23,307 bases of DNA from Escherichia coli (GTDB lineage Bacteria > Pseudomonadota > Gammaproteobacteria > Enterobacterales > Enterobacteriaceae): NCBI RefSeq assembly GCF_003334255.1, contig NZ_QOWU01000066.1; one strand, written 5' to 3'. Shown here in pieces: positions 12,001-21,000 of the stretch (its first letter is position 1; each line of letters begins with the position of its first letter). Made by a program: the position numbers.

Positions 12001-15000
12001 ATCCTTAATTCTAATAACTGGCTATTGCGCCTTACCTCGTGTTTTGTCTTTTTTTCATTACCAATGTGTGCATGTGAGGAACAATATGGCACTGCAAAAT
12101 GAGAAAAATAGTCGTTATCTTTTGCGCGACTGGAAACCAGAAAATCCGGCCTTCTGGGAAAATAAAGGAAAACATATTGCTCGAAGAAATCTCTGGATAT
12201 CAGTCAGTTGTCTACTTCTTGCCTTCTGTGTCTGGATGCTATTTAGCGCAGTTACCGTTAATCTCAATAAAATCGGTTTTAATTTTACTACCGATCAACT
12301 CTTTTTATTAACCGCATTACCCTCCGTTTCTGGCGCATTATTGCGTGTTCCCTACTCCTTTATGGTGCCTATATTCGGTGGACGCCGATGGACGGTTTTT
12401 AGTACTGCAATCCTGATTATTCCTTGCGTCTGGCTCGGAATTGCCGTGCAAAATCCGAATACTCCTTTTGGGATATTTATCGTTATCGCTTTGCTATGCG
12501 GTTTTGCAGGTGCAAACTTTGCTTCGAGCATGGGCAATATCAGTTTCTTCTTTCCAAAAGCCAAACAAGGGAGCGCTCTTGGGATTAATGGCGGATTAGG
12601 AAACTTAGGTGTAAGTGTAATGCAGCTGGTTGCACCGCTGGTCATTTTTGTACCTGTATTTGCCTTTCTCGGCGTCAATGGCGTACCGCAGGCCGACGGT
12701 TCGGTGATGTCGCTGGCGAATGCCGCATGGATTTGGGTACCGCTACTGGCGATTGCCACGATCGCCGCATGGTCAGGGATGAATGATATCGCCAGTTCAC
12801 GCGCCTCAATTGCCGACCAGCTCCCTGTCTTACAACGCCTGCATCTCTGGCTGCTGAGCCTGCTTTACCTTGCCACCTTCGGTTCGTTTATCGGTTTTTC
12901 TGCGGGTTTTGCCATGCTGGCAAAAACCCAGTTCCCGGATGTGAATATTCTGCGCCTGGCGTTCTTTGGCCCATTTATCGGTGCCATCGCGCGGTCGGTT
13001 GGTGGTGCTATTTCCGATAAGTTCGGCGGCGTGCGGGTGACGTTGATCAACTTTATTTTTATGGCGATTTTCAGTGCCCTGCTGTTCCTTACCTTACCGG
13101 GCACAGGCTCCGGTAATTTCATCGCCTTTTACGCCGTATTTATGGGGCTGTTTCTGACTGCGGGTCTGGGAAGTGGTTCTACTTTCCAGATGATCGCCGT
13201 CATCTTTCGCCAGATAACCATTTATCGGGTAAAGATGAAAGGCGGTAGTGATGAGCAAGCTCATAAAGAAGCCGTCACCGAAACGGCGGCGGCTCTGGGC
13301 TTTATCTCAGCCATTGGCGCAGTGGGCGGCTTTTTTATTCCGCAGGCGTTTGGCATGTCGCTCAATATGACCGGCTCTCCGGTCGGCGCGATGAAAGTGT
13401 TTTTAATCTTCTACATCGTTTGTGTGCTGCTGACCTGGCTGGTTTATGGTCGGCGGAAGTTCAGCCAAAAATAAGAGATCGATGCCTGATGTACAACCGT
13501 GTCGCATCCGACAAGGTATCAGATCCCAATTCATTCCTGGAGCAGGAGTCATGTCATGAGTAAACTTTTGGATCGCTTTCGCTACTTCAAACAAAAGGGC
13601 GAAACCTTTGCCGATGGTCACGGACAGGTGATGCATAGCAACCGCGACTGGGAGGACAGCTATCGCCAGCGTTGGCAGTTCGACAAAATCGTGCGTTCCA
13701 CCCACGGTGTTAACTGTACAGGCTCCTGTAGCTGGAAAATCTACGTTAAAAATGGTCTGGTGACCTGGGAAATCCAACAGACCGACTACCCGCGCACTCG
13801 CCCTGACCTGCCCAATCATGAACCTCGCGGCTGCCCGCGTGGCGCAAGTTACTCCTGGTATCTTTACAGCGCTAACCGCCTGAAATACCCGCTCATTCGT
13901 AAACGACTGATTGAACTGTGGCGCGAAGCCCTCAAGCAACACAGCGATCCGGTACTGGCGTGGGCATCGATTATGAACGATCCGCAAAAGTGCCTGAGCT
14001 ACAAACAAGTGCGTGGGCGCGGCGGGTTTATCCGCTCCAACTGGCAGGAACTAAACCAGCTGATTGCCGCCGCTAACGTCTGGACCATCAAAACCTACGG
14101 CCCGGATCGCGTTGCCGGTTTCTCGCCGATCCCGGCGATGTCGATGGTTTCTTACGCCGCCGGAACGCGTTATCTGTCGCTGCTTGGCGGCACCTGTTTA
14201 AGTTTCTACGACTGGTATTGCGACCTGCCGCCCGCCTCGCCGATGACCTGGGGCGAGCAAACCGACGTACCGGAATCTGCCGACTGGTATAACTCCAGCT
14301 ACATCATCGCCTGGGGGTCTAACGTACCGCAGACACGTACGCCGGACGCCCACTTCTTTACCGAAGTACGCTACAAAGGCACTAAAACCATCGCCATTAC
14401 CCCTGACTACTCTGAAGTGGCCAAATTGTGCGACCAGTGGCTGGCACCGAAACAAGGCACTGATAGCGCCCTGGCGATGGCAATGGGCCATGTGATTTTA
14501 AAAGAGTTTCATCTCGATAATCCCAGCGACTACTTTATCAACTACTGCCGCCGCTACAGCGACATGCCGATGCTGGTAATGCTGGAGCCTCGCGACGATG
14601 GTAGCTACGTTCCCGGGCGCATGATCCGCGCATCTGACCTGGTGGATGGACTGGGCGAAAGCAACAATCCGCAGTGGAAAACCGTAGCAGTTAATACCGC
14701 AGGTGAATTGGTAGTGCCGAACGGTTCGATTGGTTTCCGCTGGGGAGAAAAAGGCAAATGGAATCTGGAATCCATTGCCGCCGGTACGGAAACCGAATTG
14801 TCGTTAACCCTGCTCGGTCAACATGACGCTGTTGCAGGCGTGGCCTTCCCCTACTTTGGCGGCATTGAAAATCCGCATTTTCGCAGCGTAAAACACAATC
14901 CGGTGCTGGTGCGCCAATTGCCCGTTAAAAACCTGACGTTAGTCGATGGCAACACCTGTCCGGTGGTCAGCGTTTATGATTTGGTACTGGCGAATTACGG

Positions 15001-18000: not shown

Positions 18001-21000
18001 AGCGGCAAGTCAGAAAAATGCATCTTCTGTTACCCACGAATTGAGTCCGGTCAACCGACCGTGTGCTCAGAAACCTGCGTGGGTCGCATCCGGTATCTGG
18101 GCGTGCTGCTTTACGACGCCGACCGCATCGAGGAAGCGGCGAGCACCGAGCGCGAAGTTGACCTCTATGAACGCCAGTGCGAAGTGTTCCTCGATCCACA
18201 CGATCCCTCAGTGATCGAGGAAGCCCTGAAACAAGGTATTCTACAAAATGTGATTGACGCTGCCCAGCGTTCGCCAGTCTACAAAATGGCGATGGACTGG
18301 AAACTGGCACTACCGTTGCACCCTGAATACCGCACCCTGCCGATGGTCTGGTACGTTCCTCCGCTGTCACCGATTCAGTCCTACGCAGATGCGGGCGGTT
18401 TGCCGAAAAGCGAAGGCGTGCTGCCCGCCATCGAAAGCCTGCGTATTCCGGTGCAATATCTCGCCAATATGTTGAGTGCCGGCGATACCGGTCCGGTACT
18501 GCGGGCGCTGAAACGGATGATGGCGATGCGCCACTATATGCGTTCACAAACCGTGGAAGGCGTTACTGATACTCGTGCCATCGACGAAGTAGGCCTGAGC
18601 GTCGCCCAGGTCGAAGAGATGTATCGCTATCTCGCCATTGCCAACTATGAAGATCGTTTTGTTATCCCGACCAGCCATCGGGAAATGGCGGGCGATGCCT
18701 TCGCAGAACGCAACGGCTGCGGTTTTACCTTTGGCGACGGTTGCCACGGTTCGGACAGTAAATTCAACCTGTTCAACAGTAGCCGTATCGATGCCATCAA
18801 CATCACCGAAGTGCGCGACAAAGCGGAGGGCGAATAATGCAGATCCTCAAAGTGATCGGCCTGTTGATGGAGTATCCGGACGAGCTGTTGTGGGAATGCA
18901 AGGAGGACGCGCTGGCGTTGATCCGCCGCGACGCGCCGATGCTTACGGATTTCACCCACAACCTGCTTAACGCGCCGCTGCTGGATAAACAGGCCGAATG
19001 GTGCGAAGTGTTTGACCGCGGGCGCACCACGTCGCTGCTGCTGTTCGAACATGTTCATGCCGAGTCCCGCGATCGCGGCCAGGCAATGGTGGACCTGCTG
19101 GCGGAGTATGAAAAGGTCGGCCTGCAGCTGGATTGTCGGGAACTGCCCGATTATCTACCGCTGTATCTGGAGTATTTAAGCGTACTGCCTGACGATCAGG
19201 CGAAAGAAGGATTGCTCAATGTTGCGCCGATCCTCGCCCTGCTTGGCGGTCGCTTAAAACAACGCGAGGCACCGTGGTACGCGTTGTTTGATGCTCTGCT
19301 GCAACTGGCGGGAAGCTCCCTTTCAAGTGACAGTGTCACAAAACAAGTAAACAGCGAAGAGCGCGATGACACCCGCCAGGCGCTTGATGCAGTGTGGGAA
19401 GAGGAACAGGTGAAGTTTATTGAAGATAACGCCACGGCGTGTGACAGCTCGCCGCTTAATCAATATCAGCGACGCTTTAGCCAGGATGTCGCGCCGCAAT
19501 ATGTCGACATCAGTGCGGGAGGTGGGAAATGATTCAGTATCTGAACGTCTTTTTTTACGATATCTACCCGTACATTTGTGCGACGGTGTTTTTCCTCGGC
19601 AGCTGGCTGCGCTACGACTACGGGCAGTACACCTGGCGCGCCTCCTCAAGTCAAATGCTCGATAAACGCGGGATGGTGATATGGTCGAATCTGTTCCATA
19701 TCGGCATTTTGGGGATTTTCTTCGGGCACTTGTTCGGCATGTTAACGCCGCACTGGATGTACGCGTGGTTTTTGCCAGTGGCAGCGAAACAACTCATGGC
19801 GATGGTGCTCGGCGGTATTTGCGGTGTGTTGACGTTGATTGGCGGCGCAGGACTGCTGTGGCGCAGGCTGACAAATCAGCGCGTGCGTGCCACTTCCACT
19901 ACGCCGGATATCATCATCATGAGCATTTTGCTGATCCAGTGTCTGTTGGGGCTAAGTACCATACCGTTTTCAGCACAGTATCCTGATGGTAGCGAAATGA
20001 TGAAGCTGGTGGGTTGGGCGCAAAGCATTGTCACTTTCCGTGGTGGATCGTCAGAGATGCTCAACGGCGTAGCGTTCGTCTTCCGCCTGCATCTGGTGTT
20101 GGGAATGACCATCTTCCTGCTCTTCCCGTTCACCCGACTGGTGCATGTGTGGAGCGCGCCGTTTGAGTACTTTACTCGTCGATATCAAATTGTGCGTTCG
20201 CGGCGATAATTTCACCCTGGCCGGATAGCCCTTCGCTCTCCGGCCACTTGCAGGCTATGATAGTTCTCCAGTCACAGGAGAACGTTAATGAAACCGCAGG
20301 TGTACCACGTCGATGCTTTTACCTCACAACCGTTTCGCGGCAATTCTGCCGGTGTTGTTTTCCCCGCCGATAATCTTAGCGAAGCGCAAATGCAGCTTAT
20401 CGCCCGCGAGTTAGGCCATTCGGAAACTGCTTTTCTGCTGCACAGCGACGACAGCGATGTGCGCATCCGCTACTTTACGCCAACGGTTGAAGTGCCGATT
20501 TGCGGTCACGCGACAGTAGCTGCGCACTATGTACGTGCGAAGGTGTTAGGTTTAGGAAATTGCACGATCTGGCAAACATCGCTGGCAGGAAAACATCGCG
20601 TGACTATCGAAAAGCACAACGATGATTATCGTATTTCGCTGGAACAAGGTACGCCGGGCTTTGAGCCACCGCTGGAAGGTGAAACACGTGCGGCGATTAT
20701 CAACGCGCTTCATCTCACTGAGGACGATATTCTGCCAGGCTTGCCAATTCAGGTGGCAACAACAGGACACTCAAAAGTGATGATCCCACTGAAACCGGAA
20801 GTGGATATCGACGCCCTTTCGCCTGACCTTAATGCGCTGACCGCTATCAGCAAAAAGATTGGCTGCAATGGTTTCTTCCCGTTCCAGATCCGCCCAGGCA
20901 AAAACGAAACCGATGGTCGCATGTTCTCGCCTGCGATTGGTATTGTGGAAGATCCGGTGACTGGCAATGCCAATGGCCCGATGGGTGCATGGTTGGTACA

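Follow-up and report, generated by a model that had tools for sequence, protein, structure and literature searches.

The nitrate respiration genes narU and narZYWV lie intact and in one direction in the 23,307-nucleotide stretch of Escherichia coli DNA analysed here (the window; contig NZ_QOWU01000066.1 of assembly GCF_003334255.1), and they are confirmed as the operon for the second respiratory nitrate reductase (NRZ) known from this species. The stretch is read as the chromosomal NRZ locus, which would be expressed as one RpoS- and OmpR-driven transcript and in which overlaps between the genes would tie the synthesis of the subunits together; the probability of this reading as a whole is put at about 0.93. 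The locus is already known. Its sequence, genetics and biochemistry have been studied for decades, a crystal structure of NarU exists and the present copy is essentially the K-12 allele, so the discovery value is small; the outcome is a clean annotation, in which the coordinates are exact, the frames intact and the ligands conserved. Sequence shows the gene content and its intactness, the orthology and paralogy, the ligands, the compact junctions and the loss of a narG-type control region, while the roles of RpoS and OmpR, the single transcript and the coupling are inferred or come from the literature.

The five genes occupy 12086-20209, all on the + strand, exactly as a preliminary description made from the sequence had placed them. 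These are narU (12086-13474, ATG start at 12086), encoding a nitrate/nitrite transporter of the MFS type (462 amino acids), narZ (13556-17296), encoding the catalytic α subunit of nitrate reductase Z (1246 amino acids), narY (17293-18837), encoding the Fe-S β subunit (514 amino acids), narW (18837-19532), encoding a NarJ-type molybdenum-cofactor assembly chaperone (231 amino acids), and narV (19529-20209), encoding the dihaem cytochrome b γ subunit (226 amino acids). Translation gives 462, 1246, 514, 231 and 226 residues with a single terminal stop each, and neither frameshifts nor premature stops are present in the five translated frames, so that the earlier statement of intact and full-length genes holds. 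Families were assigned with NCBIfam models and their curated cut-offs, and all five proteins match at full length and above the cut-off. NarU belongs to the NarU subfamily (NF011608, positions 1-462 of 462, 1019 bits, cut-off 836), matches PDB 4IU8 (NarU) across 1-462 and has R87 and R303, which align with the substrate-binding Arg89 and Arg305 of NarK. NarZ is an α subunit (TIGR01580, 2330 bits, cut-off 1084, residues 2-1234 on model positions 1-1235). The ligands of NarG, which we take from PDB 1Q16 to be H50, C54, C58 and C93 for FS0 (His-x3-Cys-x3-Cys...Cys) and D223 for Mo (Asp; numbered from Met1), are identical in NarZ at five of five aligned positions. NarY is a full-length β subunit (TIGR01660, 978 bits, cut-off 524) that aligns with NarH (1Q16 chain B) over 1-506 and keeps all 16 positions of the FS1-FS4 cluster ligands of NarH, namely 15 Cys and Trp219. 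The models for NarJ/NarW chaperone membership were NF011628 and TIGR00684; NarW matches the former over positions 1-231 of 231 (513.5 bits, cut-off 410), and its gene lies between the β and γ genes. NarV is a full-length γ subunit (TIGR00351, 427 bits, cut-off 106), and its H57, H67, H188 and H206 align with the haem bD and bP ligands H56, H66, H187 and H205 of NarI. A pseudogene reading was rejected on the full-length family matches, the intact frames and the kept ligands. In function, NarU imports nitrate and exports nitrite through the inner membrane. NarZ (with Mo-bisMGD and FS0), NarY (with four Fe-S clusters) and NarV (with two b haems) form the membrane-bound quinol:nitrate oxidoreductase NRZ, and NarW, as a NarJ-type chaperone, keeps apo-NarZ ready for cofactor insertion.

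The surroundings of the genes are those of the K-12 chromosome, in the order yddG...narU-narZYWV-yddE-nhoA, with the operon situated between yddG/yddLKJ and yddE-nhoA. Gene order, flanks, junction overlaps and the 81-bp narU-narZ spacer are the same as in K-12 MG1655 (b1469-b1465), and nucleotide identity is above 99.9% to narU-narV of MG1655 and 60-76% to narK-narGHJI, as expected of an NRZ orthologue. Two bases differ from MG1655 inside the five genes and their spacers: position 13517 in the narU-narZ spacer (T in the window, C in K-12 and others) and position 18242, which makes NarY P317L; NarU, NarZ, NarW and NarV are identical to the K-12 proteins. Outside the operon, K-12 has 178 bp between yddM and fdnI that are missing from the window. 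In the nucleotide comparison 8525 bp are 100% identical to E. coli G1/2, G6/7 and G8, and a copy with at least 80% coverage of the stretch is carried by 5390 of 5426 complete E. coli genomes. A K-12-like E. coli (phylogroup A type) is the best explanation of the host locus type. The window itself starts with an IS1 end inside bdm.

A close relative within the same species is narK-narGHJI (nitrate reductase A), and the paralogy claimed for it in the preliminary description is borne out by alignment: the five functions and their order are the same and amino-acid identity to NarK, NarG, NarH, NarJ and NarI is 74.6, 78.7, 77.7, 55.5 and 71.7%, respectively. The cofactor ligands that were checked are shared, and all three reductase junctions are overlapped in both operons, with overlaps of -4/-4/-1 in K-12 narGHJI versus -4/-1/-4 in narZYWV. 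The spacers differ more: that between narK and narG is 515 bp long, regulated and contains the NarS sRNA, while that between narU and narZ is 81 bp long with no homology to it. The narG promoter in the narK-narG spacer is controlled by FNR, NarL and IHF, and a control region of this type has been lost from the NRZ operon. As the titles and passages cited in the literature describe it, narGHJI responds to anaerobiosis and nitrate, and narZYWV to RpoS and stress. Furthermore, the literature describes stiA of Salmonella Typhimurium as narZYWV, the RpoS-dependent, starvation-induced orthologue, which is required for starvation-induced thermotolerance and acid tolerance; repression by FNR has been reported for Salmonella narZYWV. 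A narK-narGHJI-type cluster is also found on the 514-kb plasmid pGABEKP28_1 of Pantoea piersonii, in another Enterobacterales family and with flanks unlike those of E. coli; 37 bp separate its transporter gene from the α gene downstream, its overlaps are identical (-4/-1/-4) and its β subunit is 84% identical to NarY.

The only protein difference from K-12, the rare NarY P317L, raises the question of whether this copy is functionally impaired, since Pro occupies this position in NarY of K-12, in NarH and in most homologues. Among 4276 matching E. coli records just 8 have the exact 61-mer of the Leu317 allele, and Pro is found at this position in seven of the nine other NarH/NarY sequences compared. 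However, position 317 is not a cluster ligand, its equivalent is Ala in Pseudomonas aeruginosa NarH and Asp in Thermus NarH, and the allele is common to several independent isolates from humans, a pig and seawater, which makes impairment highly improbable. The overlaps between the reductase genes comprise ATGA at 17293-17296 (narZ/narY, 4 nt), TAATG at 18835-18839 (narY/narW, 1 nt) and ATGA at 19529-19532 (narW/narV, 4 nt), the same motifs as noted before; narU is set apart from narZ by 81 bases. The -4/-1/-4 geometry is also annotated in ST131, O157:H7, a chicken isolate and the Pantoea plasmid, and it is no chance feature of the present copy. The overlaps place each start codon and Shine-Dalgarno sequence in the 3' end of the preceding gene, so that ribosomes ending one subunit could open or re-use the next start and the rates of subunit synthesis would be linked. 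This geometry, with 4-, 1- and 4-nt overlaps and the Shine-Dalgarno within the upstream frame, is permissive for coupling. On the other hand, the overlaps may be nothing other than compact packing handed down from an ancestral nar operon, each subunit being initiated independently. Each of the downstream starts in narZYWV is preceded at 6-9 nt by a GGAGG-type Shine-Dalgarno of its own. Among diverse annotated nar operons, drawn from a plasmid collection, some or all of the junctions are open by 2-48 nt in Pseudomonas, Thermus, Cupriavidus and Rhodococcus (P. aeruginosa +11/+5/+2, Thermus +11/+9/+3, C. necator -4/+37/+48). Universality of the overlap pattern among nar operons was accordingly rejected; it holds in the Enterobacterales and partly in other Proteobacteria. 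Moreover, at two junctions the overlap types of the paralogues are interchanged (-4/-1/-4 versus -4/-4/-1), so the exact geometry would be unconstrained. Against packing alone, none of the three junctions has lost its overlap in either enterobacterial paralogue or in Pantoea, although the proteins have diverged by 25-45%, and overlaps of 1 and 4 nt commonly support termination-reinitiation in bacterial operons for complexes. Packing alone is possible, if somewhat doubtful. Translational coupling is plausible but unproven, because each gene has its own Shine-Dalgarno and distant nar operons are often gapped; the overlaps, which had been said to imply coupling, are compatible with it.

The spacer between narU and narZ (13475-13555, + strand, 81 bp) bears on whether the five genes are one transcription unit. 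It consists of a degenerate REP-like hairpin remnant and the narZ Shine-Dalgarno (AGGAG) and folds with -24.8 kcal/mol (z = -2.0); in B2-type strains a REP-like GCCTGA...TCAGGC arm is completed by 13 extra bases. A NarS-like sRNA or narG-type promoter after narU was considered and rejected, as the similarity to narK stops in the coding 3' end (85 nt, 76%) and nucleotide comparison of the 81 bp found no homology to NarS or the narG promoter. Consensus scans gave no promoter-like site on the + strand in 12086-13555 and no terminator-like site in the spacer. A single narUZYWV transcript fits a spacer that is a REP remnant with neither element detected, and is most likely; it would start in the conserved block of about 186 bp upstream of narU. 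An organization in two units, with a narZ promoter in the 3' end of narU or in the spacer, would resemble the paralogous locus, where narK and narGHJI are split, and the older literature calls the operon narZYWV and leaves narU out; in addition, consensus scans overlook many real promoters, so that an internal narZ promoter within narU could have escaped them. We consider it quite unlikely, in that the 81-bp spacer, compared with 515 bp, has nothing in common with the narG promoter, all five mRNAs respond jointly both when ompR is deleted and when a position 263 bp ahead of narU is mutated, and the transporter gene likewise lies 19-75 bp upstream of narG in Pantoea, Paracoccus and Pseudomonas.

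Expression of the single transcript would be driven by RpoS-containing RNA polymerase with assistance from OmpR and without the FNR/NarL control of narK and narGHJI. An FNR/NarL-activated promoter was to be recognized by TTGAT-N4-ATCAA near -41.5 together with homology to the narG and narK control regions. The region upstream of narU has neither: no FNR box with two or fewer mismatches occurs in 11338-12257, and comparison with the narK upstream region and with the narK-narG spacer gave no significant similarity. Dependence on RpoS is taken from the literature, namely the title of Chang et al. 1999 as cited in PMC4689864 and, for RpoS/stationary-phase expression, Spector et al. 1999 as cited in PMC8139620; these citations agree with the stationary-phase expression given in the preliminary description. 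Regulation is broader than RpoS, for expression of narUZYWV is OmpR-dependent under osmotic stress (PMC5438342), and in an ompR mutant all five transcripts drop together (log2 -3.0 to -5.6). The published OmpR ChIP-exo peak at 1542224-1542283 (NC_000913.2) corresponds to window positions 11888-11947 and covers a predicted OmpR-type site, GTTACATTTAGTAACA (11903-11918, + strand), with one mismatch to GTTACA-N4-GTTACA (GTTACA-N4-GTAACA). This putative site is invariant in four diverse strains and lies in an upstream block that is conserved across the phylogroups of E. coli.

Of the sigma-S features sought upstream of narU, one candidate was found, a -10-like element, TCTATTCTT (11969-11977, + strand), which lies 109 nt before the ATG of narU and has TATTCT as its hexamer and C at -13. 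Nowhere else in the 23-kb window is TCTATWCTT matched; the element is part of the invariant upstream block, and its -35 region, CCCCGC, is poor. It should be taken as a lead only, because the pattern was chosen after the sequence had been read. A generic scan for promoters and terminators was uninformative, as its total of hits was no higher than in shuffled sequence and its sigma-70 part gave no + strand promoter upstream of narU. The OmpR dataset records no transcription start site for the operon, so the assignment of the narU promoter is a prediction, and for promoter and start site alike the conserved 186-bp block makes it a concrete, testable one.

Farther upstream there is a hairpin with a 12-bp stem (11823-11851), which would be an island-derived element in strains with the low-GC yddL/K/J island. 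T1538580C, a ciprofloxacin-selected mutation 263 bp upstream of narU that is reported to raise expression of the operon up to 10-fold, all five transcripts together, falls exactly on the first base of this hairpin. Control might be bipartite, a core promoter conserved in all E. coli (11903-11918 with 11969-11977) being accompanied in yddL/K/J strains by the hairpin, which would insulate the operon from, or attenuate, read-in from the island. We regard this arrangement as unlikely; if true, a core respiratory operon would be modulated by a remnant of horizontal origin.

At the other end of the operon, the narV-yddE spacer (20210-20287, + strand) folds into two stable hairpins with no U-tract (-32.5 kcal/mol, z = -2.7), and no canonical intrinsic terminator was scored in it. 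Rfam scans of the whole window at the gathering threshold, and of 11300-20500 at a permissive E<=1, gave no structured RNA in or beside the operon. The sole Rfam match in the window is the SECIS element of fdnG.

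The second (NRZ) respiratory nitrate reductase operon of Escherichia coli, narU-narZYWV, lies at 12086-20209 and consists of narU (12086-13474, 462 aa), narZ (13556-17296, 1246 aa), narY (17293-18837, 514 aa), narW (18837-19532, 231 aa) and narV (19529-20209, 226 aa). The preliminary description had read five co-directional genes here, which is borne out on the + strand by the ORF list and by direct reading of the junctions; the frames are also intact as proposed, each having a single, terminal stop codon. This is a textbook, already characterised operon and the allele is essentially that of K-12. 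Positions 11763-20287 have 100% identity with three E. coli chromosomes, those of strains G1/2, G6/7 and G8, and from 11000 to the window end there are three differences from K-12 MG1655, at 11623 (within the yddJ part of a leucine-rich-repeat (LRR) pseudogene), 13517 (within the narU-narZ spacer) and 18242 (Pro317 to Leu in NarY), NarU, NarZ, NarW and NarV being identical to the K-12 proteins. The neighbours are also those of the K-12 map, namely maeA, adhP, yddM, fdnIHG, yddG and yddL/K/J upstream and yddE, nhoA and yddH downstream.

All five products match NCBIfam models end to end and exceed the curated cut-offs: NarU, NF011608 (1019 bits, cut-off 836); NarZ, TIGR01580 (2330, 1084); NarY, TIGR01660 (978, 524); NarW, NF011628 (513.5, 410); and NarV, TIGR00351 (427, 106). 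The crystallised NarU (PDB 4IU8) is matched over the full length, and NarY residues 1-506 align with NarH of PDB 1Q16. The suggested paralogy to narK-narGHJI was confirmed when these K-12 genes were fetched and aligned with the window, amino acid (nucleotide) identities being 74.6% (69.3%) for NarU/NarK, 78.7% (75.6%) for NarZ/NarG, 77.7% (75.0%) for NarY/NarH, 55.5% (60.0%) for NarW/NarJ and 71.7% (68.1%) for NarV/NarI. In the alignments, NarZ keeps the Asp that binds Mo in NarG together with the FS0 ligands, NarY all 15 Cys and the single Trp that ligate the four clusters in NarH, NarV the four haem-ligand His of NarI and NarU the two substrate-binding Arg of NarK; conservation was computed, and the residues themselves are those which we take to be the ligands and substrate contacts in 1Q16 and the NarK/NarU structures.

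NarY Leu317 is a rare allele: of 4276 E. coli records that match here, only 8 have the exact 61-mer around it. K-12 NarY, NarH and the homologues from Pantoea, Cupriavidus, Paracoccus and Rhodococcus have Pro at position 317; P. aeruginosa has Ala and Thermus has Asp. The position has no cofactor-ligand role, and from the sequence we see no reason to suppose that the allele would be defective.

Of the 5426 complete E. coli genomes, 5390 have a copy of the operon (at least 80% query coverage, identity at least 94.6%) and narU-narZYWV therefore belongs to the species core, in contrast to the poor conservation within Escherichia mentioned in PMC5438342. In a lamb isolate (NZ_OZ462641.1, 6284-12011) the match stops 282 bases into the 8.5-kb query (11763-20287), at about window position 12044, and there a Tn5-type element with IS50R, aph(3')-IIa, ble and aph(6)-Ic begins; because the query matches nowhere else in that chromosome, the operon is apparently disrupted or lost. 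In addition, a complete narU-narZYWV with a 99.6% identical NarY is carried by a 164-kb IncHI1B plasmid of a poultry E. coli (NZ_CP104527.1, 3781-11917), flanked by ISKpn26 and IS1 and adjoining lactate-utilisation genes. NarY occurs at 99% identity or more in 42 plasmid-collection records, with E. fergusonii plasmids among the matches listed.

The overlaps within narZYWV are as described earlier: ATGA at 17293-17296, TAATG at 18835-18839 and ATGA at 19529-19532, that is, -4, -1 and -4 nt (negative, overlap) for the alpha/beta, beta/chaperone and chaperone/gamma junctions. The same values are found in ST131, O157:H7, a chicken isolate and the Pantoea piersonii plasmid; the others are -4/-4/-1 in K-12 narGHJI, -4/-4/+13 in Paracoccus kondratievae, -4/+37/+48 in Cupriavidus necator pHG1, -1/+35/+4 in Rhodococcus qingshengii, +11/+5/+2 in Pseudomonas aeruginosa and +11/+9/+3 in Thermus thermophilus. 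Tight packing is general among the nar operons compared; having all three junctions overlap is an enterobacterial trait, and the precise type of overlap varies. Translational coupling in narZYWV, which the preliminary description took to be implied, is plausible and would fit this geometry; alternatively, each subunit may be initiated independently at strong internal Shine-Dalgarno sequences, and a GGAGG-type sequence placed within the preceding gene is present before each downstream start.

narU and narZ do not overlap but are 81 bases apart, whereas narK and narG of K-12 are separated by 515 bp in which the sRNA NarS is annotated and which also holds the FNR/NarL/IHF-controlled narG promoter. 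When the 81-bp spacer was compared with K-12 narK-narGHJI, neither NarS nor the narG promoter showed similarity to it, the narU-narK similarity ending within the coding 3' end, and a scan of it gave no site resembling a promoter or a terminator. The spacer forms a modest hairpin and is a decayed REP-like element, one arm of which is completed by 13 extra bases in B2-type strains; no Rfam family matched 11300-20500, even at E ≤ 1. Published expression data agree with narUZYWV as a single transcription unit: the levels of all five mRNAs are jointly lower in an ompR mutant exposed to salt stress (log2 -3.0 to -5.6; PMC5438342), and all five rise when a point mutation is present 263 bp upstream of narU (PMC11417348). 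At the downstream end, the 78-bp narV-yddE spacer contains two stable hairpins without a U-tract, and no intrinsic terminator was scored there.

Upstream of narU, similarity among E. coli phylogroups begins at about 11900; two candidate elements, an OmpR-type site and a sigma-S-like -10, lie in this conserved block, which is about 186 bp long. The predicted OmpR-type site, GTTACATTTAGTAACA (11903-11918), has one mismatch to the OmpR-type direct repeat. The OmpR ChIP-exo peak for narUZYWV in PMC5438342 (1542224-1542283, NC_000913.2), converted with the help of the narU position in NC_000913.3, the ompF peak in that table serving as control, corresponds to 11888-11947 and spans this site; the OmpR dataset lists no transcription start site for the operon. 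RpoS dependence and growth-phase control are taken from the literature, namely from Chang et al. 1999, from its title in PMC4689864, and for Salmonella from Spector et al. 1999, as cited in PMC8139620. The preliminary description had proposed a scan for sigma-S features upstream of narU, and there is a candidate -10, TCTATTCTT (11969-11977), which resembles the sigma-S consensus with C at -13 and is the single match in the window; because the pattern was chosen after reading the sequence, the match counts as a lead rather than as a test. A search of 11338-12257 for FNR boxes with up to two mismatches gave none, and the region upstream of narU showed no similarity to the narK promoter. Regulation of the operon probably includes OmpR besides RpoS.

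B2 strains do not have the low-GC (33-40%) yddG-narU island (10118-11762; yddL, yddK, yddJ), and yddG adjoins narU there. According to PGAP, yddK and yddJ are one frameshifted LRR gene. In this position one lamb isolate has an intact LRR gene of 443 aa, whereas in O157:H7 it is occupied by an ompC-like porin and the T3SS effector EspR1. Directly after the yddJ stop, in the variable part missing from B2 strains, is an inverted repeat (11823-11851, 12-bp stem, AACCCTTTAGAT-5 nt-ATCTGAAGGGTT, about -18.5 kcal/mol). A ciprofloxacin-selected mutation of BW25113, T1538580C, falls exactly on the first base of this repeat, 11823, and is reported in PMC11417348 to increase narUZYWV expression; the window has the wild-type base.

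Elsewhere, positions 1-77 are the terminal 77 bases of IS1, and because this end directly adjoins coding base 35 of bdm (junction 77/78), the gene is interrupted in the source strain; a few sequenced E. coli, such as the pig isolate HCP30S3_I2, have the same contiguous junction. fdnG (5698-8745) has an in-frame UGA codon for selenocysteine, marked by a SECIS_3 element (8105-8163, - strand, 84 bits), and for this reason the ORF list splits the gene into 195-aa and 803-aa pieces. The yddM-fdnI stretch (3921-4132) is 178 bases shorter than in K-12 MG1655, G1/2 also having the short form; its self-alignment in two registers suggests a local repeat-copy difference.
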